Shown piece by piece: positions 1-12,156 of a stretch of DNA of 12,156 nt (the first letter of the stretch is position 1; each line of letters opens with the position of its first letter). This DNA comes from a virus, in the UHGV virus genome UHGV-0071740, one strand, 5' to 3'. The translations under genes were made by a program, and so were the position numbers. The notes under the pieces were generated by a model. That model worked only from the letters and a program-made list of their open reading frames with translations. It did not search any database and was not told the origin of the DNA.

Positions 1-170
1 TTTGGTCATTAGAGGCGCCGCACCCCCTGTGTCTGGCCGCAGCACCACAGAGTGCACAGGCGCGCAGTGACACTGCGCTGGATCGTCTGATGCAGGGGGC
101 ACCGGCACCGCTGGCTGCAGGTAACCCGGCATCTGATGCCGTTAACGATTTGCTGAACACACCAGTGTAA
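1..170 (+). CDS. C: capsid assembly protease C / scaffold Nu3, C-terminal end (5' partial, runs off window start)
   Basis: Frame open from window start to TAA at 168-170; translated tail ...APAPLAAGNPASDAVNDLLNTPV; sits immediately upstream of D as in lambda. Identity rests on position and recollection of lambda, not a search. Confidence 0.7.
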   Translation, partial: WSLEAPHPLCLAAAPQSAQARSDTALDRLMQGAPAPLAAGNPASDAVNDLLNTPV

Positions 171-567: not shown

Positions 568-812
568 ATGTCGATGTACACAACCGCCCAGCTGCTGGCG
601 GCAAATGAGCAGAAATTTAAGTTTGATCCGCTGTTTCTGTGTCTCTTTTTCCGTGAGAGCTATCCCTTCACCACGGAGAAAGTCTATCTCTCACAAATTC
701 CGGGACTGGTAAACATGGCGCTGTACGTTTCGCCGATTGTTTCCGGTGAGGTTATCCGTTCCCGTGGCGGCTCCACCTCTGAATTTACGCCGGGATATGT
801 CAAGCCGAAGCA
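568..812 (+). pseudogene. E: major capsid protein E, N-terminal fragment (codons 1-82), interrupted by insertion
   Basis: Translation from ATG 568 (MSMYTTAQLLAANEQKFKFDPLFL...GYVKPKH) matches the lambda gpE N-terminus; the frame then reads 9 foreign codons (LAWLSEAFV) to a stop at 841-843. The rest of E resumes at 7333. Confidence 0.95.
803..812. repeat. left copy of 10-bp direct repeat AGCCGAAGCA (attL core / target duplication)
   Basis: Identical 10-mer at 803-812 and 7333-7342, exactly at the two points where E coding sequence breaks and resumes. Confidence 0.8.
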
Positions 813-920
813 CTTAGCATGGCTTTCTGAGGCTTTCGTGTAGTTGCTGGTTTTTACACTTAATCTTTTGATAATAAAGAATAAGTTTATCTGGCGCTTT
901 CACTGGATTTTCCTCGTTAT

Positions 921-962
921 CTGTGTGTTGCAATCATCTCTGTATTGCAGCTTGTATTGCTT
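921..962. repeat. direct repeats of TGT(G)TTGCA-type motif (candidate integrase arm-type sites, left end)
   Basis: TGTGTGTTGCAA 923-934, TGTATTGCAG 941-950, TGTATTGC 953-960, the last two 12 bp apart; the same motif recurs at 7234-7256 near the other end. Confidence 0.55.
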
Positions 963-975
963 TTTGGGGCTAAAA

Positions 976-2211
976 ATGGCTGGCGAGAACAAACTGAGCG
1001 ACAAAGCACTTAAAGGATATCTGGGGAAACCCAGAGAAAAGCAGATCACCATTGCTGATGGAAAGGGGCTTTCTATTCGTGTGAGTACCAAGGGGGCTGT
1101 GAGCTTTGTTTTCTTCTACAGGTTAGCAGGTGGCCGGGCTGCTCCGGTCTGGCTAACGTTGGGTAAATATCCTGATATGTCACTCAAACAGGCAAGGGAA
1201 AAGCGCGACGAGTGCCGTGGTTGGTTGGCTGACAAACGTGATCCGCGTATCCAGATTAAGATTCAGGCTGAAGAACGCTTAAAGCCGGTCACAGTGGAGG
1301 ATGCACTAAATTACTGGTATGAAAATTACTGTAAGGTGCGTCGTAAAACTCATGCTGTAACGCTTGGCAGATTTCGAAAGCATATCTTTCCCTATATCGG
1401 TCATTTGCCCGTAAATGACACTCACCTATATGAATGGCTGGACTGTTTTGACCGAATTAAACGTAATGCACCAGTTATGGCGGCGTATGTTTTTTCTGAC
1501 ACTAAATTAGCTCTTCGTTTTTGTCGGGTACGCCAGTACGCGACGTGTGATGTTTTAAAGGATTTGCGCATGAGTGATGTGGGGCAGATTGCAGGTAAGC
1601 GGGATCGGGTTCTGGATGAAGCCGAACTGGGCCAGCTCTGGAAGGCAATTTTTGTCGAGCCTGATTTAAAACTAATGTCTGAATACACGCGAAAAATGTT
1701 TGTGCTTTGTACAGTATTTGGATGTCGAATGAGTGAAGCCCGATTATCTGAATGGAGCGAATGGGATCTCGAAAGTTGGGTTTGGACTGTACCAAAAGAT
1801 CACTCAAAAACTGGTGTTGAAATCGTCAGACCAGTACCTGAAATTCTACGACAGTGGGTAACGGATGTTCACGAAGAGACAAAACATACTGGTTATGTGC
1901 TGGGAAGTCTGCGAATTAGAGAAAGCGTAAGCAAGATTGGGGGGAAAATCGGTAAACGTTTGGGCCATGAAAAACAATGGTCACTACACGACCTTAGAAG
2001 AACGCTATCTACTCATCTAAGTGATCTCGGTGTTGAATTTTATGTAGTAGAACAACTGTTAGGCCATGCGCTACCTGGCGTGGCAGGTGTTTACAACCGG
2101 AGTAAGTTTATGGCTAAAAAACTGGATGCTCTGGAACTCTGGACTACATATCTCAATAGCATCGCAGGTGCTGATTCAAAAGTGACAATCCTCAAACAAA
2201 AGGCTGGTTAA
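976..2211 (+). CDS. int: tyrosine recombinase / phage integrase, P4-like with N-terminal arm-binding domain
   Basis: ORF track 844..2211; most plausible start is ATG 976 (MAGENKLSDKALKGYLGKP...). C-terminal catalytic signature HDLRRT...LLGHA...GVYNRS (conserved His/Arg and putative catalytic Tyr); sits next to the element boundary. Confidence 0.9.
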   Translation: MAGENKLSDKALKGYLGKPREKQITIADGKGLSIRVSTKGAVSFVFFYRLAGGRAAPVWLTLGKYPDMSLKQAREKRDECRGWLADKRDPRIQIKIQAEERLKPVTVEDALNYWYENYCKVRRKTHAVTLGRFRKHIFPYIGHLPVNDTHLYEWLDCFDRIKRNAPVMAAYVFSDTKLALRFCRVRQYATCDVLKDLRMSDVGQIAGKRDRVLDEAELGQLWKAIFVEPDLKLMSEYTRKMFVLCTVFGCRMSEARLSEWSEWDLESWVWTVPKDHSKTGVEIVRPVPEILRQWVTDVHEETKHTGYVLGSLRIRESVSKIGGKIGKRLGHEKQWSLHDLRRTLSTHLSDLGVEFYVVEQLLGHALPGVAGVYNRSKFMAKKLDALELWTTYLNSIAGADSKVTILKQKAG

Positions 2212-2212
2212 C

Positions 2213-2434
2213 ATGAAAAAAATGGCAATTGTTGATAAAAAGGGTCTGGAGTACATTCCTAACATCGATCGTATGATCCGTGAGAAAGAATGTCGGGAGC
2301 TAACCACTCTTGCAAACAGCACACGCTGGAAGCTGGAGAAGGAAGGAAAATTTCCTAAGCGGATCAAGATTGGTTCCACTGCTGTTGCATATCGTCTTTC
2401 AGAAGTGCAGGCATGGATTAGGGGAGAGTGGTAA
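2213..2434 (+). CDS. alpA: AlpA-family (CP4-57 type) DNA-binding regulator / excisionase-like protein
   Basis: 73-aa ORF starting 2 nt after the int stop; small basic protein with ...KRIKIGSTAVAYRLSEVQAWIRGEW, typical of AlpA/Vis-like winged-helix proteins that accompany satellite integrases. Confidence 0.75.
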   Translation: MKKMAIVDKKGLEYIPNIDRMIREKECRELTTLANSTRWKLEKEGKFPKRIKIGSTAVAYRLSEVQAWIRGEW

Positions 2435-3835
2435 GAATTTAGACAGTGGATGGAATCCTATGGGGGGAACCCATAGGGTTTTAAATAACATAAATTCAAA
2501 AACGTGCGTAGTTGATGAGATTATATAATTAGGTGGTAAGTATTGAACTATTTCTCCATCTTCTTCAAAAATATGAATAACTCTTGGGAATAATTCAGGG
2601 CGTATAGGATTTAATGCCTTCGGATTATGAAACATGTATATTGCTGTACACCATGGTTCTTGATATGAAGGTGCATTGACAAGAGCAGTAAAAGGCATTG
2701 GGGTACAGCCTTCATCAGTTTTAATACCTCTAACGATGGATTTGACATTTTTTTGTTCAATCCCTGCCACTACTCCCATTCTATCAAATTTTGGGATGGT
2801 GGCATGTGTCGCAAGTAATATGGCTGAGACATTCTCATTTTTATTAGAGCCGAAAAAATTAGATGGTATACTTCGATTTTCAAATAAATGTTGTTCAATT
2901 TTACTTCCAGAATCCATATCTACACCATACAGATAGCTTTGTAGTGCTGGCATTGATATACTCATCGAAAGTCTGTGTGAGTAATCGTGTAAAGCAATAA
3001 TGAAAGGCTTTCCTTTTGTATGATCTAGTTCCCAATAGCATAATTTTAAGGGTTCAGGTTTATGCCTAACTTTCTTTAATAGAGTGCGGGCAAATTTGAA
3101 TGGCATTTGTTCTTTTACATATCTCTGAAGATCTTCTACTGCCTCATGATCAAGTATCAATTTCTCGGTAGGTTCCTCTTGTTCTGCAACTGTGGCAGCT
3201 TCTACAGCAATATCAATGCCATTTTTTGAGATAATATAATCAGGTTGAGCATAATCTCTGCATATTACGAAATCCATTTCGTAGAAAACTGCGTTTAGAT
3301 AAAGTTCGAATAAGCGAGAGTTAAATGAAGCACTCTGGAAATCTCTGATGAATATTCCATCAGGATCTTTACACCAATAAGCTAACTCTTGCATAACAAT
3401 AAATGCAGGATAGTGTTTGGGTTCCTCAAGTAGCATTCTTAGATAAACGTTTTTTTTATGTTCTGGAACTTTGGCTAGGAATATTGAAAATGCCGACTCT
3501 GATTCGTCACCCTGTATAAAACAACCGTTCTTGTGTAGTGATAATAGCTCTGGTATGGCTTTTTCCATATCAGTAATTAAATCATCTTTAGATTCACGGG
3601 ATACAATTACTTTAATCGCTCTAAATTTTTTATCTAAATCCCTACCTAGAAATATAGCGTTGTAATCATTATCTATTTTACAAAAAACAATTGTTGCTAA
3701 GATTGTGACATCATCCTTTATAAATTTGAACCAACAGATTTCCTCCGAAAAGGTTTTTACGTATGGTGTACGACCATAGAAAAATACATCAAATTGTTCT
3801 TTACTGATTTCTAGCATTTTGTGACTTGTTGTCAT
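2399..3835 (-). CDS. hypothetical 478-aa protein, AT-rich, no family assignable by eye (candidate defence/effector cargo)
   Basis: Long uninterrupted minus-strand ORF; start ATG at 3835 preceded by AAGGA Shine-Dalgarno; lies 23 nt downstream of the RHH gene on the same strand; strongly AT-rich relative to its surroundings. Confidence 0.7.
   Translation of the reverse strand: MTTSHKMLEISKEQFDVFFYGRTPYVKTFSEEICWFKFIKDDVTILATIVFCKIDNDYNAIFLGRDLDKKFRAIKVIVSRESKDDLITDMEKAIPELLSLHKNGCFIQGDESESAFSIFLAKVPEHKKNVYLRMLLEEPKHYPAFIVMQELAYWCKDPDGIFIRDFQSASFNSRLFELYLNAVFYEMDFVICRDYAQPDYIISKNGIDIAVEAATVAEQEEPTEKLILDHEAVEDLQRYVKEQMPFKFARTLLKKVRHKPEPLKLCYWELDHTKGKPFIIALHDYSHRLSMSISMPALQSYLYGVDMDSGSKIEQHLFENRSIPSNFFGSNKNENVSAILLATHATIPKFDRMGVVAGIEQKNVKSIVRGIKTDEGCTPMPFTALVNAPSYQEPWCTAIYMFHNPKALNPIRPELFPRVIHIFEEDGEIVQYLPPNYIISSTTHVFEFMLFKTLWVPPIGFHPLSKFLPLSPNPCLHF
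2456..2482 (+). terminator. rho-independent terminator-like hairpin after alpA
   Basis: TCCTATGGG (2456-2464) / CCCATAGGG (2470-2478), 5-nt loop GGGAA, then TTTT 2479-2482; begins 22 nt after the alpA stop. Confidence 0.55.
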
Positions 3836-3858
3836 AGAAGAATCCTTTATGCAAATTA

Positions 3859-4053
3859 TCAGCCTTTAGGTGTTATTCCTTGTTTTATTAGTTCGGCACG
3901 AGCCAGTTCTTTTAGCCAGTTACCTAAGCTCATCCCTTCTTTGGCAGCGACATTAACCATTTGTTCTTTTAATTCTGGGTTAATACGGACTTGGAATGCT
4001 GGTGCTTTACCTGCACCTTTCGGTTGTTTATCACGTTGAATGATAGTTGACAT
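3859..4053 (-). CDS. Arc/CopG-like ribbon-helix-helix DNA-binding protein (putative regulator or antitoxin)
   Basis: 64-aa ORF; segment PAFQVRINPELKEQMVNVAAKEGMSLGNWLKELARAEL fits the beta-strand then helix pattern of Arc/MetJ-type RHH proteins; first gene of the operon with the 478-aa ORF. Confidence 0.6.
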   Translation of the reverse strand: MSTIIQRDKQPKGAGKAPAFQVRINPELKEQMVNVAAKEGMSLGNWLKELARAELIKQGITPKG

Positions 4054-4095
4054 GTGTGTACCTATTGCTTAGTATGATTCTTGATAGGTACACAC
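4054..4095. promoter_or_regulatory. perfect 12-bp inverted repeat GTGTGTACCTAT-N18-ATAGGTACACAC (operator-like)
   Basis: Arms at 4054-4065 and 4084-4095; lies between the predicted -10 and the RHH start codon (4051-4053). Confidence 0.6.
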
Positions 4096-4113
4096 CTTAT
4101 CATGTTTTATTGC

Positions 4114-4142
4114 TATATAACAACGCCCTGCAGTGCTCGCAA
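4114..4142 (-). promoter_or_regulatory. predicted sigma70 promoter for the RHH/478-aa operon
   Basis: On the minus strand: -35 TTGCGA (4142-4137), 17-bp spacer, -10 TATATA (4119-4114); would start transcription about 50 nt upstream of the RHH ATG. Confidence 0.5.
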
Positions 4143-4156
4143 CACATACAGGGCGT
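4123..4156. promoter_or_regulatory. second inverted repeat ACGCCCTG-N18-CAGGGCGT overlapping the predicted -35
   Basis: Perfect 8-bp arms at 4123-4130 and 4149-4156, with the same 18-nt spacer length as the 12-bp palindrome. Confidence 0.4.
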
Positions 4157-4390
4157 CTAACCACCAACGATAGCAACAGTATCGAGGTAGCTATGAGAAA
4201 TCATACCACACACCCGCAAGGGCGGGATTCGCACAACCTGAATAAATACATCTGGCGTTTTATCGCCCTGAGCACCGCACAACCACGCGTAATACACATC
4301 GAGGCCGCCAGCGAACAGGAAGCCCGCCAGCAATCCCCAACTGGCTACGTGATGATATTCGCCGCCCGTATTCGTCAGGAGGTGTGCCAT
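4157..4390 (-). CDS. possible small hydrophobic protein (77 aa); coding status uncertain
   Basis: ORF track; GC-rich block with frequent G at codon position 1 and common E. coli codons in this frame; hydrophobic stretch WGLLAGFLFAGGLDVYYAWLCGA. But its start codon overlaps the start and Shine-Dalgarno of the divergent + gene, which is awkward. Confidence 0.3.
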   Translation of the reverse strand: MAHLLTNTGGEYHHVASWGLLAGFLFAGGLDVYYAWLCGAQGDKTPDVFIQVVRIPPLRVCGMISHSYLDTVAIVGG

Positions 4391-4613
4391 GAATGATCTT
4401 TATTTTAAAGTGCTGACACATGCTGAAAACGCGCTCGTTTGTGGCAAAAATATGCGAGAAATCTTATCAACCTGGCTTGATGGGACAACAAATGCAGAAC
4501 ACGATGAACGGGATGCTAATTTAGCTGGAGCGTTAATTACGTTACTTGATCCTGTCATCAAAGAGCTGGATGAAGCTATAAAAATACACGACCAGAGCTA
4601 TACCGGAGAATAA
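4389..4613 (+). CDS. hypothetical protein (74 aa), first gene of the primase operon
   Basis: ATG 4389 preceded by AGGAGG 4377-4382; followed 3 nt later by the next ORF. Confidence 0.55.
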   Translation: MNDLYFKVLTHAENALVCGKNMREILSTWLDGTTNAEHDERDANLAGALITLLDPVIKELDEAIKIHDQSYTGE

Positions 4614-4616
4614 AAA

Positions 4617-4904
4617 ATGAAAAATAAATTTTCTGGCTTTATTGCCAGCGGTCAAACTCATTCAAAAATCAGCCTTGGGGATATTTTCAAAGACAGCTAT
4701 GGCTATCGGGTAAAGATTATTTCGGTTGATGATCGTCGTGTCTCTTATTTGCGTGATGGTTATGATTTTGAATGTGTTATGCCGCGTCAGCAGTTCGAAA
4801 GAGATTTCATTCTGGTAAAAAATTGCAAGACAGATAATCAGAGGCGTGCCGCAGGCTATATCCGTAAAATTCGGGCAATGTTAGTTGCCGGAGGTAACAA
4901 ATGA
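4617..4904 (+). CDS. hypothetical protein (95 aa), translationally coupled to primase
   Basis: ATG 4617 preceded by GGAGA; its stop overlaps the primase start (ATGA at 4901-4904). Confidence 0.55.
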   Translation: MKNKFSGFIASGQTHSKISLGDIFKDSYGYRVKIISVDDRRVSYLRDGYDFECVMPRQQFERDFILVKNCKTDNQRRAAGYIRKIRAMLVAGGNK

Positions 4905-6667
4905 AACGTGCTCCGAACTTAAAATACCAACCGCGCGACAAAATGACGGAAGTCATCATTTTTGCTGGCAGTGATGCCTGGAGCCATGCAAAAGAATGGA
5001 ATGAATGGGCAGGTAAGCATATTGCAGCAGATGATACACCACCAGTCATTCTGGGTACGGAACAACTGGAAAACCTGGATGATATGCAAATTATCGATGA
5101 AGGCCGTCATTATGTGCGTGTTTATCGTGCCGGAAAGATTGCAGAGAAAAGTCTGACGAAGGTTGCGACATTACTTGCTATTGCAGGCGTAAAGGAAGCA
5201 CGTTGTTACCGTAGCTTTGTTGATCGAGAGCCTGAAGACTGGACTCCGCGCCTTGTCGGCCTAAAAGCTGAAGCGGAGCATGGGGAAAGTCTGGTGATTG
5301 AACTGCCAGTGAAGAAGGCTGAGCGCAAAAATGACGAGCGTGCTTCATCTTTGGCGTTGAATCAGATGGGGGCCAGCCAGCGCGGTGAAGTTCTCCTTGC
5401 ACATTACGGCGGCGAACTGGCAATCAATGCCGACTCTGACACCGTTCATCATTACAACGGCGTTGTATGGGAGCCGGTTCAGGATAAAGAGTTACAGCGT
5501 GCTATGGCGCAGATTTTCATTGATGCGGAGATCAGCTATTCGCAGAACGCTATTAAATCGGCGGTAGATACCATGAAGTTAAGTTTGCCTGTAATGGGGA
5601 ATACAGCCCGTAACCTGATTGGATTCAGTAACGGGGTATTTGATACCAGAACTGGTAATTTTCGGGAGCATAACAAAAACGACTGGTTGTTAATTGCCAG
5701 TGAATTACCTTTCAGCCCACCAGCAGAGGGGGAAACGCTGGCAACACATGCGCCGAATTTCTGGAAGTGGTTGCGCCGTTCGGTGGCTGAGAATGACCGC
5801 AAGGCAGATCGCGTACTGGCGGCATTATTCATGGTGCTGGCGAACCGGTACGACTGGCAGTTATTCATTGAGGTAACAGGGCCGGGGGGAAGTGGTAAAA
5901 GTGTGATGGCGGAGATTTGCACCATGCTGGCGGGTAAGGCTAATACAGTATCAGCAAGCATGAAGGCGCTGGAAGATGCAAGGGAACGTGCGTTAGTGGT
6001 TGGCTTTTCGCTGATTATCATGCCGGATATGACCCGCTACGCTGGTGATGGGGCAGGGATTAAGGCCATTACAGGCGGTGACAAGGTGGCAATTGACCCG
6101 AAACACAAAGCCCCCTATTCAACGCGTATTCCGGCAGTAGTGCTGGCGGTTAACAATAACGCCATGTCATTCAGTGACCGCAGCGGGGGGATCTCACGTC
6201 GTCGGGTGATATTCAATTTTTCGGAAGTTGTACCGGAGAACGAACGCGATTCGATGCTGGCGGAAAAAATAGAAGGTGAGCTGGCGGTAGTGATTCGTCA
6301 TCTGCTTACAAGGTTTGCTGATCAGGACGAAGCCAGACGCCTGTTATATGAGCAGCAGAAATCTGAAGAAGCACTGGCGATAAAGCGAGAGGGGGATTCG
6401 CTGGTGGACTTCTGCGGTTATCTCATGGCATCGGTAATGTGTGATGGCCTGTTAGTGGGTAATGCTGAAATTGTGCCATTCAGCCCACGCAGGTATCTCT
6501 ATCATGCCTATCTTGATGAGCTGTTCGTTCCATGTGCATCACCGAGTTTATTACGAAGAGTACCTAACCCATTTACAACTGCAGAACAACCGCCGAGAAT
6601 TTGTTTGAAGATATTTTCAGTATGTTGGTCGGCAGATAGGTTAAGTTCTTTTGAAAGAGTTTTATAA
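4901..6667 (+). CDS. P4-family primase/helicase-like replication protein (D5_N-like region, SF3-type P-loop), C-terminus apparently truncated or chimeric
   Basis: 588-aa ORF; Walker A GPGGSGKS encoded near 5880-5900; hydrophobic-D Walker B-like LIIMPD; overall pattern of phage/plasmid primase P4-family C-terminal domain; the last ~50 codons are antisense to the HEPN gene and look like read-through. Confidence 0.8.
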   Translation: MKRAPNLKYQPRDKMTEVIIFAGSDAWSHAKEWNEWAGKHIAADDTPPVILGTEQLENLDDMQIIDEGRHYVRVYRAGKIAEKSLTKVATLLAIAGVKEARCYRSFVDREPEDWTPRLVGLKAEAEHGESLVIELPVKKAERKNDERASSLALNQMGASQRGEVLLAHYGGELAINADSDTVHHYNGVVWEPVQDKELQRAMAQIFIDAEISYSQNAIKSAVDTMKLSLPVMGNTARNLIGFSNGVFDTRTGNFREHNKNDWLLIASELPFSPPAEGETLATHAPNFWKWLRRSVAENDRKADRVLAALFMVLANRYDWQLFIEVTGPGGSGKSVMAEICTMLAGKANTVSASMKALEDARERALVVGFSLIIMPDMTRYAGDGAGIKAITGGDKVAIDPKHKAPYSTRIPAVVLAVNNNAMSFSDRSGGISRRRVIFNFSEVVPENERDSMLAEKIEGELAVVIRHLLTRFADQDEARRLLYEQQKSEEALAIKREGDSLVDFCGYLMASVMCDGLLVGNAEIVPFSPRRYLYHAYLDELFVPCASPSLLRRVPNPFTTAEQPPRICLKIFSVCWSADRLSSFERVL

Positions 6668-7173
6668 AGCTCTGACATTTCAATATTTTTATTATTATAC
6701 TGAATGCCCATATCATCAAGAATGTGTTTGCAAACTGTTTCAAGAAGTGTTCTTGCGGAGGTTATCGCACCATCCGGATCTGTATGGCGCCGTTCAAGTG
6801 CTTTTATCCAAACGGCGTGGACTCCATCCTCGTTAAACTTTCTTAATACATCAGATATGTCTTCATCCGCTGGAGCTTTATTTTTCCCTTCTAGATAGTC
6901 CAGCATCGGCTGAAATGCCTTATAAATCAAATCTCTCCGGGGGGCATACTTTTCAGTCTTTTTTATAAATCCCCAAAATTCTTTTAGTGAGCGATTAGTT
7001 CTCACAAACTCTGGTAATAGCTGATGTAAAGGAGGATTTTGTAAGAAATATGTTCTTAGAAGCAAATAATCATTATTAGCTTCATCCTGGGCTCCTGTAG
7101 CTCTTGCAATTAGTATGTTTTGAAGCGCTACTGCGCGCTCTAGGTCATTTTGAAGGGTATCTATAATATTCAT
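6508..7173 (-). CDS. HEPN-type abortive-infection-like protein (Abi_C-like), 221 aa
   Basis: Minus-strand ORF, AT-rich; C-terminal GLGTLRNKLGDAHG contains an R-x6-H motif of the HEPN/Abi_C type; only 7 residues follow the motif His, so the protein may be C-terminally shortened. Confidence 0.55.
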   Translation of the reverse strand: MNIIDTLQNDLERAVALQNILIARATGAQDEANNDYLLLRTYFLQNPPLHQLLPEFVRTNRSLKEFWGFIKKTEKYAPRRDLIYKAFQPMLDYLEGKNKAPADEDISDVLRKFNEDGVHAVWIKALERRHTDPDGAITSARTLLETVCKHILDDMGIQYNNKNIEMSELYKTLSKELNLSADQHTENIFKQILGGCSAVVNGLGTLRNKLGDAHGTNSSSR

Positions 7174-7233
7174 AACAAATCTTTATTCACTTCATTTGTG
7201 GGTTGATAATTGAATGGTTTGTACATTGATTTC

Positions 7234-7256
7234 TGTGTATTGCAGTGTGTATTGCA
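7234..7256. repeat. tandem direct repeat TGTGTATTGCA x2 (candidate integrase arm-type sites, right end)
   Basis: Copies at 7234-7244 and 7246-7256 (12-bp register), about 80-100 bp inside the right junction; same motif and orientation as the left-end copies. Confidence 0.55.
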
Positions 7257-7332
7257 ACATAGCCATTCAGGTAGAGATTATGCTCTATTTTTCCTCTTAT
7301 ATCATTCACATACTTACACCATTGACTCATGT

Positions 7333-7342
7333 AGCCGAAGCA
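7333..7342. repeat. right copy of 10-bp direct repeat AGCCGAAGCA (attR core)
   Basis: Identical to 803-812; lambda-like E sequence resumes from here. Confidence 0.8.
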
Positions 7343-8123
7343 TGAAGTGAATCCGCAGATGACCCTGCGTCGCCTGCCGGATGAAGATCCGCAGAATCTG
7401 GCGGACCCGGCTTACCGCCGCCGTCGCATCATCATGCAGAACATGCGTGACGAAGAGCTGGCCATTGCTCAGGTCGAAGAGATGCAGGCAGTTTCTGCCG
7501 TGCTTAAGGGCAAATACACCATGACCGGTGAAGCCTTCGATCCGGTTGAGGTGGATATGGGCCGCAGTGAGGAGAATAACATCACGCAGTCCGGCGGCAC
7601 GGAGTGGAGCAAGCGTGACAAGTCCACGTATGACCCGACCGACGATATCGAAGCCTACGCGCTGAACGCCAGCGGTGTGGTGAATATCATCGTGTTCGAT
7701 CCGAAAGGCTGGGCGCTGTTCCGTTCCTTCAAAGCCGTCAAGGAGAAGCTGGATACCCGTCGTGGCTCTAATTCCGAGCTGGAGACAGCGGTGAAAGACC
7801 TGGGCAAAGCGGTGTCCTATAAGGGGATGTATGGCGATGTGGCCATCGTCGTGTATTCCGGACAGTACGTGGAAAACGGCGTCAAAAAGAACTTCCTGCC
7901 GGACAACACGATGGTGCTGGGGAACACTCAGGCACGCGGTCTGCGCACCTATGGCTGCATTCAGGATGCGGACGCACAGCGCGAAGGCATTAACGCCTCT
8001 GCCCGTTACCCGAAAAACTGGGTGACCACCGGCGATCCGGCGCGTGAGTTCACCATGATTCAGTCAGCACCGCTGATGCTGCTGGCTGACCCTGATGAGT
8101 TCGTGTCCGTACAACTGGCGTAA
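7333..8123 (+). pseudogene. E: major capsid protein E, C-terminal fragment (codon ~80 to end), no start codon of its own
   Basis: Frame open from 7335, with an in-frame TAG at 7332-7334 just upstream; translation ...KPKHEVNPQMTLRRLPDEDPQN...DEFVSVQLA matches the remainder of lambda gpE. Confidence 0.95.
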
Positions 8124-8125
8124 TC

Positions 8126-8143
8126 ATGGCCCTTCGGGGCCAT
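8126..8143 (+). other. stable hairpin ATGGCCC-TTCG-GGGCCAT in the E-FI intergenic region
   Basis: 7-bp perfect stem with a UUCG tetraloop immediately after the E stop; its ATG (8126) is a spurious ORF start. Confidence 0.45.
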
Positions 8144-8164
8144 TGTTTCTCTGTGGAGGAGTCC

Positions 8165-8563
8165 ATGACGAAAGATGAACTGATTGCCCGTCTCCGCTCG
8201 CTGGGTGAACAACTGAACCGTGATGTCAGCCTGACGGGGACGAAAGAAGAACTGGCGCTCCGTGTGGCAGAGCTGGAAGAGGAGCTTGATGACACGGATG
8301 AAACTGCCGGTCAGGACACCCCTCTCAGCCGGGAAAATGTGCTGACCGGACATGAAAATGAGGTGGGATCAGCGCAGCCGGATACCGTGATTCTGGATAC
8401 GTCTGAACTGGTCACGGTCGTGGCACTGGTGAAGCTGCATACTGATGCACTTCACGCCACGCGGGATGAACCTGTGGCATTTGTGCTGCCGGGAACGGCG
8501 TTTCGTGTCTCTGCCGGTGTGGCAGCCGAAATGACAGAGCGCGGCCTGGCCAGAATGCAATAA
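8165..8563 (+). CDS. FI: DNA packaging / head assembly protein FI
   Basis: Translation from ATG 8165 (MTKDELIARLRSLGEQLNRD...ERGLARMQ) matches lambda gpFI; GGAGGA Shine-Dalgarno 8155-8160. Confidence 0.9.
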   Translation: MTKDELIARLRSLGEQLNRDVSLTGTKEELALRVAELEEELDDTDETAGQDTPLSRENVLTGHENEVGSAQPDTVILDTSELVTVVALVKLHTDALHATRDEPVAFVLPGTAFRVSAGVAAEMTERGLARMQ

Positions 8564-8574
8564 CGGGAGGCGCT

Positions 8575-8928
8575 GTGGCTGATTTCGATAACCTGTTCGA
8601 TGCTGCCATTGCCCGCGCCGATGAAACGATACGCGGGTACATGGGAACGTCAGCCACCATGACATCCGGTGAGCAGTCAGGTGCGGTGATACGTGGTGTT
8701 TTTGATGACCCTGAAAATATCAGCTATGCCGGACAGGGCGTGCGCGTTGAAGGCTCCAGCCCGTCCCTGTTTGTCCGGACTGATGAGGTGCGGCAGCTGC
8801 GGCGTGGAGACACGCTGACCATCGGTGAGGAAAATTTCTGGGTAGATCGGGTTTCGCCGGATGATGGCGGAAGTTGTCATCTCTGGCTTGGACGGGGCGT
8901 ACCGCCTGCCGTTAACCGTCGCCGCTGA
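8575..8928 (+). CDS. FII: head-tail joining protein FII
   Basis: GTG start 8575 after GGGAGG; translation MADFDNLFDAAIARADETIRGYMG...PPAVNRRR matches lambda gpFII. Confidence 0.9.
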   Translation: MADFDNLFDAAIARADETIRGYMGTSATMTSGEQSGAVIRGVFDDPENISYAGQGVRVEGSSPSLFVRTDEVRQLRRGDTLTIGEENFWVDRVSPDDGGSCHLWLGRGVPPAVNRRR

Positions 8929-8939
8929 AAGGGGGATGT

Positions 8940-9518
8940 ATGGCCATAAAAGGTCTTGAGCAGGCCGTTGAAAACCTCAGCCGTATCAGCAAAACGGCGG
9001 TGCCTGGTGCCGCCGCAATGGCCATTAACCGCGTTGCTTCATCCGCGATATCGCAGTCGGCGTCACAAGTTGCCCGTGAGACAAAGGTACGCCGGAAACT
9101 GGTAAAGGAAAGGGCCAGGCTGAAAAGGGCCACGGTCAAAAATCCGCAGGCCAGAATCAAAGTTAACCGGGGGGATTTGCCCGTAATCAAGCTGGGTAAT
9201 GCGCGGGTTGTCCTTTCGCGCCGCAGGCGTCGTAAAAAGGGGCAGCGTTCATCCCTGAAAGGTGGCGACAGCGTGCTTGTGGTGGGTAACCGTCGTATTC
9301 CCGGCGCGTTTATTCAGCAACTGAAAAATGGCCGGTGGCATGTCATGCAGCGTGTGGCCGGGAAAAACCGTTACCCCATTGATGTGGTGAAAATCCCGAT
9401 GGCGGTGCCGCTGACCACGGCGTTTAAACAAAATATTGAGCGGATACGGCGTGAACGTCTTCCGAAAGAGCTGGGCTATGCGCTGCAGCATCAACTGAGG
9501 ATGGTAATAAAGCGATGA
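8940..9518 (+). CDS. Z: tail assembly protein Z
   Basis: Translation MAIKGLEQAVENLSRISKTAVPGAAAMAINRV... matches lambda gpZ. Confidence 0.9.
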   Translation: MAIKGLEQAVENLSRISKTAVPGAAAMAINRVASSAISQSASQVARETKVRRKLVKERARLKRATVKNPQARIKVNRGDLPVIKLGNARVVLSRRRRRKKGQRSSLKGGDSVLVVGNRRIPGAFIQQLKNGRWHVMQRVAGKNRYPIDVVKIPMAVPLTTAFKQNIERIRRERLPKELGYALQHQLRMVIKR

Positions 9519-9910
9519 AACATACTGAACTCCGTGCAGCCGTACTGGATGCACTGGAGAAGCATGACACCGGGGCGACGTTTTTTGATGGTCGCCCCGC
9601 TGTTTTTGATGAGGCGGATTTTCCGGCAGTTGCCGTTTATCTCACCGGCGCTGAATACACGGGCGAAGAGCTGGACAGCGATACCTGGCAGGCGGAGCTG
9701 CATATCGAAGTTTTCCTGCCTGCTCAGGTGCCGGATTCAGAGCTGGATGCGTGGATGGAGTCCCGGATTTATCCGGTGATGAGCGATATCCCGGCACTGT
9801 CAGATTTGATCACCAGTATGGTGACCAGCGGCTATGACTACCGGCGCGACGATGATGCGGGCCTGTGGAGGTCAGCCGCTCTTACTTATGTCATTACCTA
9901 TGAAATGTGA
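9515..9910 (+). CDS. U: tail terminator protein U
   Basis: Start overlaps the Z stop (ATGA); translation [31 protein letters not shown]... matches lambda gpU. Confidence 0.9.
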
Positions 9911-9917
9911 GGACGCT

Positions 9918-10658
9918 ATGCCTGTACCAAATCCTACAATGCCGGTGAAAGGTGCCGGGACCACCCTGTGGGTTTATAAGGGGAGCGGTGACCCTTATGC
10001 GAATCCGCTTTCAGACGTTGACTGGTCGCGTCTGGCAAAAGTTAAAGACCTGACGCCCGGCGAACTGACCGCTGAGTCCTATGACGACAGCTATCTCGAT
10101 GATGAAGATGCAGACTGGACTGCGACCGGGCAGGGGCAGAAATCTGCCGGAGATACCAGCTTCACGCTGGCGTGGATGCCCGGAGAGCAGGGGCAGCAGG
10201 CGCTGCTGGCGTGGTTTAATGAAGGCGATACCCGTGCCTATAAAATCCGCTTCCCGAACGGCACGGTCGATGTGTTCCGTGGCTGGGTCAGCAGTATCGG
10301 TAAGGCGGTGACGGCGAAGGAAGTGATCACCCGCACGGTGAAAGTCACCAATGTGGGACGTCCGTCGATGGCAGAAGATCGCAGCACGGTAACAGCGGCA
10401 ACCGGCATGACCGTGACGCCTGCCAGCACCTCGGTGGTGAAAGGGCAGAGCACCACGCTGACCGTGGCCTTCCAGCCGGAGGGCGTAACCGACAAGAGCT
10501 TTCGTGCGGTGTCTGCGGATAAAACAAAAGCCACCGTGTCGGTCAGTGGTATGACCATCACCGTGAACGGCGTTGCTGCAGGCAAGGTCAACATTCCGGT
10601 TGTATCCGGTAATGGTGAGTTTGCTGCGGTTGCAGAAATTACCGTCACCGCCAGTTAA
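9918..10658 (+). CDS. V: major tail tube protein V with C-terminal Ig-like domain
   Basis: Translation from ATG 9918 ([22 protein letters not shown]...) matches lambda gpV, 246 aa; the ORF track start at 9834 is an upstream extension overlapping U. Confidence 0.95.
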
Positions 10659-10673
10659 TCCGGAGAGTCAGCG

Positions 10674-11096
10674 ATGTTCCTGAAAACCGAATCATTTGAA
10701 CATAACGGTGTGACCGTCACGCTTTCTGAACGGTCAGCCCTGCAGCGCATTGAGCATCTCGCCCTGATGAAACGGCAGGCAGAACAGGCGGAGTCAGACA
10801 GCAACCGGAAGTTTACTGTGGAAGACGCCATCAGAACCGGCGCGTTTCTGGTGGCGATGTCCCTGTGGCATAACCATCCGCAGAAGACGCAGATGCCGTC
10901 CATGAATGAAGCCGTTAAACAGATTGAGCAGGAAGTGCTTACCACCTGGCCCACGGAGGCAATTTCTCATGCTGAAAACGTGGTGTACCGGCTGTCTGGT
11001 ATGTATGAGTTTGTGGTGAATGATGCCCCTGAACAGGCAGAGGACGCCGGGCCTGCAGAGCCTGTTTCTGCGGGAAAGTGTTCGACGGTGAGCTGA
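10674..11096 (+). CDS. G: tail assembly chaperone G
   Basis: Translation MFLKTESFEHNGVTVTLSERSALQRIEHLALMKRQAEQ... matches lambda gpG, 140 aa. Confidence 0.9.
   Translation: MFLKTESFEHNGVTVTLSERSALQRIEHLALMKRQAEQAESDSNRKFTVEDAIRTGAFLVAMSLWHNHPQKTQMPSMNEAVKQIEQEVLTTWPTEAISHAENVVYRLSGMYEFVVNDAPEQAEDAGPAEPVSAGKCSTVS
11072..11078 (+). promoter_or_regulatory. programmed -1 ribosomal frameshift slippery heptamer GGGAAAG (G to G-T fusion)
   Basis: Heptamer in the G frame as G GGA AAG, six codons before the G stop; the T frame opens in the -1 frame exactly here. Confidence 0.85.
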
Positions 11097-11512
11097 GTTT
11101 TGCCCTGAAACTGGCGCGCGAGATGGGGCGACCCGACTGGCGTGCCATGCTTGCCGGGATGTCATCCACGGAGTATGCCGACTGGCACCGCTTTTACAGT
11201 ACCCATTATTTTCATGATGTTCTGCTGGATATGCACTTTTCCGGGCTGACGTACACCGTGCTCAGCCTGTTTTTCAGCGATCCGGATATGCATCCGCTGG
11301 ATTTCAGTCTGCTGAACCGGCGCGAGGCTGACGAAGAGCCTGAAGATGATGTGCTGATGCAGAAAGCGGCAGGGCTTGCCGGAGGCGTTCGTTTTGGCCC
11401 GGACGGGAATGAAGTTATCCCCGCTTCCCCGGATGTGGCGGACATGACGGAGGATGACGTAATGCTGATGACAGTATCAGAAGGGATCGCAGGAGGAGTC
11501 CGGTATGGCTGA
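11078..11512 (+). CDS. T: tail assembly protein T, expressed only as a G-T fusion via the -1 frameshift
   Basis: -1 frame ORF with no convincing own start; translation ...FDGELSFALKLAREMGRPDWRAMLAGMSSTEYADWHRFYSTHYFHDV... matches lambda gpT. Confidence 0.85.
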   Translation: MFDGELSFALKLAREMGRPDWRAMLAGMSSTEYADWHRFYSTHYFHDVLLDMHFSGLTYTVLSLFFSDPDMHPLDFSLLNRREADEEPEDDVLMQKAAGLAGGVRFGPDGNEVIPASPDVADMTEDDVMLMTVSEGIAGGVRYG

Positions 11513-12156
11513 ACCGGTAGGCGATCTGGTCGTTGATTTAAGTCTGGATGCGGCCAGATTTGACGAGCAGATGGCCAGAGTCAGGCGTCATTTTTCCGGT
11601 ACGGAAAGTGATGCGAAAAAAACAGCGGCAGTCGTTGAACAGTCGCTGAGCCGACAGGCGCTGGCTGCACAGAAAGCGGGGATTTCCGTCGGGCAGTATA
11701 AAGCCGCCATGCGTATGCTGCCTGCACAGTTCACCGACGTGGCCACGCAGCTTGCAGGCGGGCAAAGTCCGTGGCTGATCCTGCTGCAACAGGGGGGTCA
11801 GGTTAAGGACTCCTTCGGCGGGATGATCCCCATGTTCAGGGGGCTTGCCGGCCACCTCGCTGGCGGTGGCGACCGGTGCGCTGGCGTATGCCTGGTATCA
11901 GGGCAACTCAACCCTGTCCGATTTCAACAAAACGCTGGTCCTTTCCGGCAATCAGGCGGGACTGACGGCAGATCGTATTCTGGCCCTGTCCAGAGCCGGG
12001 CAGGCGGCAGGGCTGACGTTTAACCAGACCAGCGAGTCACTCAGCGCACTGGTTAAGGCGGGGGTAAGCGGTGAGGCTCAGATTGCGTCCATCAGCCAGA
12101 GTGTGGCGCGTTTCTCCTCTGCATCCGGCGCGGCGGGGGACAAGGTCGCTGAAGCC
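11505..12156 (+). pseudogene. H: tail tape measure protein H, 5' part, frame-disrupted near 11850 (3' partial, runs off window end)
   Basis: ATG 11505 (MAEPVGDLVVDLSLDAARFDEQ...) matches the lambda gpH N-terminus, but this frame ends at 12023 after a Gly/Arg-rich nonsense tail, while the +1 frame is open from 11827 to the window end and reads ATSLAVATGALAYAWYQGNSTLSDFNKTLVLSGNQAGLTADR... Confidence 0.7.

Follow-up and report, generated by a model that had tools for sequence, protein, structure and literature searches.

A 26-nt gap in the tape-measure gene H of a lambda-type prophage contig is probably a low-coverage artefact, and the split capsid gene E holds a helper-embedded PICI

Is a lambda-type prophage in which the major capsid gene E is split and the tape-measure gene H breaks frame a prophage in decay, or do the two interruptions have different origins? 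The window, i.e. the whole 12,156-nt stretch of DNA analysed here, raises this question. It is a complete SPAdes-style metagenome contig with a k-mer coverage of 4.16 (a contig-wide value taken from the contig name), and by blastn against lambda (NC_001416) its positions 32-812 correspond to lambda 5599-6379 and its positions 7333-12156 to lambda 6370-11219, the latter at 98.9% identity and with a single gap. That gap lies in H. Gene order around it is that of lambda (G 10674-11096, T 11078-11512, H from 11505), the T/H overlap is kept and the slippery heptamer GGGAAAG of G-T is present. The H region divides into the following parts.

11505..11849, plus strand: H codons 1-115 in the native frame, with no difference from H in either E. 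coli TO6 or the sibling contigs; the product matches Pfam TMP_2
11849..11851, plus strand: deletion junction GCC/GG/CCACC, placed by alignment, with 2 nt (GG) as the sole microhomology
11850..12023, plus strand: the Gly116 codon (unchanged), a Gly/Arg-rich out-of-frame tail of 56 residues and TAA, the end of the 172-aa product
11851..12156, plus strand: continuation of native H (codons 125-226), now in +1 and without a stop up to the contig end; the same as in the sibling contigs save for three private substitutions

Nucleotide alignment of the window with lambda H (NC_001416 10542-) opens one gap only, of exactly 26 nt and after position 11849. The absent stretch, GGTGCGATCACCCTGCCGATGGTGGG, is lambda 10887-10912, its placement being uncertain by 2 nt owing to the GG at both ends (the rightmost placement is lambda 10889-10914). 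Eight codons and 2 nt are thus missing, which removes G116-V123 of gpH together with 2 nt of the G124 codon (GAITLPMVG) from the native context ...FRGLAGAITLPMVGATSLAVATG... A first-pass annotation, made from the letters of the window, had proposed a deletion of about 26 bp near 11850 that costs H 8 codons plus 2 nt, and this the alignment bears out; the gpH string it gave (GLAG-AITLPMVG-ATSLAVATG) is indeed that of lambda (...FRGLAG-AITLPMVG-ATSLAVATG). Its reading of the frames likewise agrees with the ORF call. From ATG 11505 the H frame runs to a stop at 12021-12023 and ends in the Gly/Arg-rich tail, giving a product of 172 aa in which residues 1-116 are native and the next 56 out of frame, while the last stop in +1 is at 11824-11826, after which this frame stays open over 11827-12156 (the window end) and is where H codons 125-226 resume and match lambda-type H. 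Rather than a single ORF of ~853 codons we therefore find a frame that breaks at codon 116 and stops at 12023 in a gene that leaves the contig, the end of which is 305 nt from the deletion site.

Apart from the 26-nt gap, nucleotide identity to lambda H is ~99% over the 652 nt present and, judged by sequence, the H match is homology at ~99% identity, not a chance pattern. The window shares with lambda gene H and its product gpH (NC_001416 10542-13103; TMP_2 and Tape_meas_lam_C) the G-T-H synteny, the 8-nt T/H overlap and the same N-terminal sequence, and TMP_2 (PF06791) is found on the 172-aa product itself; it differs from lambda in that 26 nt (codons 116-124) are missing and in that its annotated H frame stops 172 codons in. 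The intact H genes most closely related to it are those of E. coli TO6 and of L006 (853 aa), one of the sibling contigs dealt with below. Residues 116-140 of gpH form a hydrophobic stretch, tentatively proposed to be a membrane-spanning segment, and residues 818-849 sit in the tail tip complex (PMC12617516). The residues lost from the window are the start of the predicted membrane segment 116-140 and, taken literally, the 172-aa product would be a null allele for tail assembly, since it is without 737 of 853 residues including the C-terminal part at the tail tip.

Two frames that overlap over 197 nt (11827-12023), together with a rare AGG codon just upstream (TTC AGG GGG, 11835-11843), may bring to mind functional recoding, in which a +1 ribosomal frameshift within the overlap joins the two parts or H is made as two polypeptides. 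To our minds the probability of this is practically negligible. The two-frame arrangement is conserved nowhere, being shared by none of the relatives; neither a recognised shift site nor a stimulator was found in the H overlap, and inspection shows no ribosome-binding site next to a codon at which translation could plausibly restart. Moreover, the predicted membrane segment 116-140 (PMC12617516) would lack its first 8-9 residues in the recoded product.

The view that two lesions, the split in E and the frameshift in H, have independently inactivated an old prophage that is domesticated or decaying draws on E and H both being interrupted in the contig as assembled, and so calls for a closer look at E. 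Here, a 6.5-kb element (813-7332) is inserted in codons 79-82 of the major capsid gene.

803..812, plus strand: attL identity block AGCCGAAGCA (10 bp, E codons 79-82), with the doubled motif TGTATTGCnnnnTGTATTGC at 941-960
813..7332, plus strand: helper-embedded PICI, with int 976-2211, alpA 2213-2434, DUF4222 4617-4904 and primase 4901-6667
6508-7173, minus strand: Abi_C gene of the PICI
7333..7342, plus strand: attR identity block AGCCGAAGCA (10 bp), with the doubled motif at 7236-7255

The primase is of the D5_N/DUF5906 type, and int, alpA, DUF4222 and primase are co-oriented with the late genes. E:Phage_cap_E:80 is a published integration site of helper-embedded PICIs (Tommasini, Mageeney & Williams 2023, PMC10111431). 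According to the same study, the doubled TGTATTGC motif is unique to these elements, with spacings of 132 +/- 2 and 81 +/- 2, and the doubled motif tgTGTATTGCantgTGTATTGCa is located ~81 bp upstream and ~132 bp downstream of the attP centre (PMC10111431). The window holds exactly two matches to the doubled motif, both with 0 mismatches (0.14 expected by chance), which lie, measured from the core centres, 133 nt to the right of attL and 82 nt to the left of attR, so that both the att block at the published site and the doubled motif are in place. For 11capE, the founding element from E. coli NRG857c, precise excision after induction has been demonstrated by read counts and qPCR (PMC10111431). 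With the att block, the diagnostic motifs and the excision of 11capE taken together, the E split appears designed and reversible instead of decayed; judged from these features and by analogy with 11capE, the E interruption is a known satellite-helper arrangement. The first-pass annotation had counted the split E as a second inactivating lesion, a claim that is not supported in view of the att block, the diagnostic motifs, the published site E:Phage_cap_E:80 and an intact int and alpA.

Like Eco567.11capE, the window element occupies E codons 79-82, has the 10-bp identity block and the doubled motif at the same spacings and carries int, alpA and primase in co-orientation. Unlike 11capE, it measures 6.5 kb rather than 11 kb, is without a captured capsid gene and has the Abi_C gene and a minus-strand 449-aa ORF of no assigned function, which are possibly defence cargo. 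A relative of ~11 kb is present at the same E site and with the same left junction in E. coli SCU-316 (L002, NZ_CP054371; locus 8035-19030), where it brings major capsid and decoration genes of its own, encodes a restriction endonuclease and has an ssb that is frameshifted; the two elements are 99.4% identical over their first 5.7 kb.

Nor does the remainder of the late region look decayed. D, FI, FII, Z, U, V, G and T are all intact in the window, the late genes other than E and H are ~99% identical to lambda and their real differences are mostly synonymous. Twenty-four differences from lambda are common to the window and E. coli TO6, and with 19 transitions, 5 transversions and 14 synonymous changes they behave, as far as base changes can tell, as real divergence. 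When these shared sites were compared with private ones, Fisher tests returned p = 0.0046 for transition/transversion and p = 0.021 for synonymous/nonsynonymous, both on a provisional set of 9 private sites of which three (9824, 9883, 10732) were later found to be common to the composite family, the final private set being 14. Relaxed selection in the neighbour genes is thus not what we see, the shared lambda differences being mostly transitions and mostly synonymous. A cryptic prophage is expected to have several irreversible lesions; in the window H is the only candidate, and its lesion is inherited by no relative. With a member of a satellite class known to excise precisely (PMC10111431) sitting in E, complete with intact int and alpA, perfect att block and motifs, we consider decay through two lesions extremely unlikely. 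The earlier verdict of a doubly defective, domesticated or decaying prophage is therefore one that we do not share: the E split is reversible, the H lesion is private and the other late genes are intact.

How private the H lesion is can be gauged from other copies of the same composite. At least 24 contigs of other samples encode the Abi_C protein of the PICI with exactly the same sequence, and their flanks show the same prophage-plus-satellite composite. Eight sibling contigs overlap the window at 99.6-99.98% identity and, compared position by position, are essentially identical to each other where they overlap; four of them (L006, L007, L008, L010) have zero differences among themselves over 12 kb. 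The deletion site is reached by three of the eight (L006, L011, L007). In L006, a 401-kb contig that represents 7 further similar places, the 26 nt are present and H is intact with 853 aa, and L011 also reads through the site with the 26 nt in place. L007 has a gap there, to which we return below.

Searches beyond the siblings gave the same picture. The exact 172-aa product is recorded on one contig only, the window's own (ENA ERZ1742012, NODE_1002_length_12156_cov_4.16379). Among phage records every match has the extra 26 nt (783 vs 757 nt), and so have all 3,706 that match out of 5,426 E. coli complete genomes (327 vs 301 nt; 97 vs 71), genomes in which H has a median of 2 copies. Exact searches with junction 25- to 39-mers returned no match in GTDB species genomes, IMG/VR or JGI metagenomes, and the out-of-frame tail, run against a protein set of 5.8 billion clusters, hit three multiply frameshifted H fragments only, all of which keep AITLPMVG. 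Among the matches listed for IMG/VR, contigs with both flanks have the middle 26 nt in all cases but one, which has 25 nt. Hence, the lesion is absent from the siblings reaching the site, from E. coli genomes, GTDB, IMG/VR and JGI and from the protein clusters. Of the H disruption proposed by the first-pass annotation, the 26-bp deletion relative to lambda consequently stands, while its reading as decay falls, as the siblings and all searched collections lack the deletion.

The single IMG/VR exception (L102, IMGVR_UViG_2778261640_000002, 1341-1389) is itself a 1-nt H frameshift at a G run, where GGGGG has become GGGG.

If the deletion is private to the window, the question arises what else is. 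In comparison with the siblings, 14 substitutions are private to the window (11 transversions, 3 transitions), at position 336, at eight positions in 2453-2501, at 9871 and 9879 and at 12131, 12134 and 12137; 13 of the 14 thus fall in three tight clusters.

1..31, unstranded: contig head, unlike gene C of lambda, TO6, SCU-316 and the siblings
2453..2501, unstranded: 8 private substitutions in 49 nt, through which the minus-strand PICI ORF loses its stop codon; read-error-like
9871..9879, plus strand: 2 private transversions in gene U; the 28-mer spanning them is in no E. coli complete genome
12131..12137, plus strand: 3 private substitutions, GTGGAGGTGG to GCGGCGGGGG, 20-26 nt from the contig end; read-error-like

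Most of these changes turn a base into a copy of its neighbour (GGGGTA to GGGGGG; GGCA to GGCC; AAAT to AAAA; GTGGAGGTGG to GCGGCGGGGG), from which we infer a phasing-type read-error pattern. With its stop codon removed, the minus-strand PICI ORF has 478 aa in the window and now overlaps alpA, compared with 449 aa in the four siblings that have the whole ORF. No E. coli complete genome has the private clusters. Neither the window itself nor lambda, the E. coli complete genomes or the GTDB species genomes contain a match to the 31-nt head, which is probably chimeric or junk sequence at the contig tip. Other changes of a technical type, namely 14 private substitutions and the 31-nt head, therefore accompany the H gap on the same contig, and the read depth, going by the contig-wide coverage of 4.16, is low.

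Further evidence comes from an independent assembly of the composite, L007 (ERZ28571311, sample SAMEA2580210, scaffold_562). It has a run of 30 N at 2663-2692, corresponding to window 11849/11850 (...GGGGGCTTGCCGG, then N x 30, then CCACCTCG...), and the edges of this run, ...CTTGCCGG and CCACCTCG..., are the window's deletion edges to the nucleotide. L007 contains five N-runs. When sized against L006, the runs of 30, 130 and 31 N correspond to 26, 140 and 38 nt, respectively, and 10 N appears to be the minimum. Since the N-runs track true gap sizes, ~26-30 nt exist at the site in the L007 sample too, albeit unassembled. The neighbouring contig within L007 also stops no more than 10 nt from the base at which good sequence starts in the window. 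Independent assemblies thus disagree or fail at the H site, with L006 and L011 intact and L007 gapped. The coincidence may be read in two ways, either that the same or closely related reads underlie both assemblies or that a short stretch is lost systematically, and both point to a technical origin of the junction. An assembly would break at the edges seen in L007, too, if the population contained both intact and deleted alleles. A bubble between co-resident H alleles is not supported as the source of these edges: the 26 nt vary chiefly at position 22 (G/C) and not at their ends, and divergence between L007 and L006 starts only 422 nt downstream.

Taking these lines together, we consider the 26-nt gap to be probably a low-coverage read or assembly artefact rather than a prophage lesion. 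What favours an artefact is that the deletion is private to a contig of ~4x coverage, that the siblings are intact, that other error-type changes lie on the same contig and that assembly of L007 broke down over these very 26 nt. Most likely, the gap arose when short reads of a thinly covered metagenome region were assembled, the cause at read level being, as we infer, a single chimeric or faulty read or the joining of two contig tips over 26 uncovered nt; the DNA underneath most likely carries an ordinary, intact lambda-type H in a helper prophage with a PICI embedded in E. Low-coverage short-read misassembly resembles the window in its ~4x coverage, its clustered neighbour-copy substitutions, its unmatched end and the independent gap at the same place; a clean 26-nt deletion with 2-nt microhomology, in contrast, is not the commonest type of error, and deletions of 26 nt are atypical of Illumina base-calling errors. 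Sequencing or assembly error, which the first-pass annotation had kept as its alternative, is hence the better supported explanation, the gap being private to one low-coverage contig with other error-like changes.

The main weakness of the artefact lies in how the junction came about. The flanks share only 2 nt and no repeat or hairpin brackets the segment, so a de Bruijn assembler could not have formed the junction by repeat collapse, and at least one read, or a zero-gap scaffolding join, must have supplied it; this is why a chimeric or faulty read or a tip join has to be called upon. Several routes to a deletion in the DNA itself were considered and rejected. Slippage between direct repeats cannot yield a 26-nt loss, as the only nearby repeat, CCGGTGCG, is spaced at 51 nt and the flanks share GG only. 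A hairpin as the cause of the deletion finds no support in the lambda segment, whose folding is no more stable than that of shuffled sequences (z = -0.13) and in which no inverted repeats were found. An indel hot-spot is at odds with the constancy of the 26 nt in the IMG/VR contigs with both flanks among the matches listed, save for the one of 25 nt. The scar of a satellite excised from H is not indicated either, the motif of helper-embedded PICIs being present at the two E-associated positions only; the running text of PMC10111431 makes no mention of a tape-measure or H site.

That the prophage really has lost the 26 bp, very recently and possibly in a subclone of the sample's E. coli population, is in our view unlikely but to be taken seriously. 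The junction is there in the assembled sequence and could not have been created by repeat collapse, the surroundings are otherwise clean lambda-type sequence, and the bubble that a mix of intact and deleted alleles would give in the assembly graph has the same edges and could explain the gap in L007. Small deletions with 2-nt microhomology occur in nature, and frameshifted prophage genes are common in real genomes; in complete genomes they include frameshifted late genes, with T in EF7-18-51 and ssb in SCU-316 being the frameshifted prophage genes that we came across. With a median of 2 H copies per E. coli genome, the loss could also be tolerated or complemented. Against this, the deletion is known from a single contig at ~4x coverage, its siblings are intact, its neighbour genes are without signs of decay, about five other artefact-like features share the contig and all collections searched lack it. 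In four to eight other samples, moreover, the clone does not otherwise vary across 12 kb, which makes a private mutation rare a priori. If the deletion were real nonetheless, the helper prophage and its embedded PICI would be stranded unless another lambdoid prophage supplies H, and a gene that is very common among prophages would have gained a further private null mutation, one that strands an embedded satellite as well.

Were the deletion real and the coincidence with L007 taken at face value, one may go further and envisage that the 26 nt are lost repeatedly and site-specifically where the predicted membrane segment of gpH begins, i.e. a switch-like or hot-spot inactivation of a helper tail gene that would leave both satellite and helper dependent on the tape measure of another prophage. 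We rate this as highly unlikely. With a read or assembly artefact as the preferred explanation, the practical consequences are that prophage decay should not be concluded from a frame that is disrupted on a metagenome contig of 4x coverage, and that a split late gene in a lambdoid prophage calls for a helper-embedded PICI to be tested first, which in the case of E accounts fully for the split.

The hydrophobic segment of H is affected in one further genome. In E. coli EF7-18-51 (L005, NZ_CP063487), H has at about locus 3150-3250 an in-frame 51-bp tandem duplication and is annotated as intact with 870 aa. The duplication doubles 17 residues of the hydrophobic segment and is bounded by the 8-bp direct repeat CCGGTGCG, the 51-nt spacing of which explains it. 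It has the left boundary (GCC/GGTGCG) and the hydrophobic H segment in common with the window deletion, from which it differs in being repeat-bounded, 51 bp long and in frame.

Two observations on the siblings remain. From ~420 nt beyond the site, H of L007 (1-2662) and H of L006 (2635-5296) are 91% identical although the 12 kb upstream are identical, and by this comparison the tape-measure gene is a mosaic inside an otherwise clonal composite. Contig ends coincide, or nearly so, across independent samples: L010 and L013 end at window-equivalent positions 9868 and 9878, in a region adjoining the private substitutions at 9871 and 9879, L011 and L015 both start at 3499, and L012 and L014 both end at 10860. 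Such coinciding ends suggest recurrent break points in the assembly graph, perhaps from paralogous prophage sequence in the same genomes.
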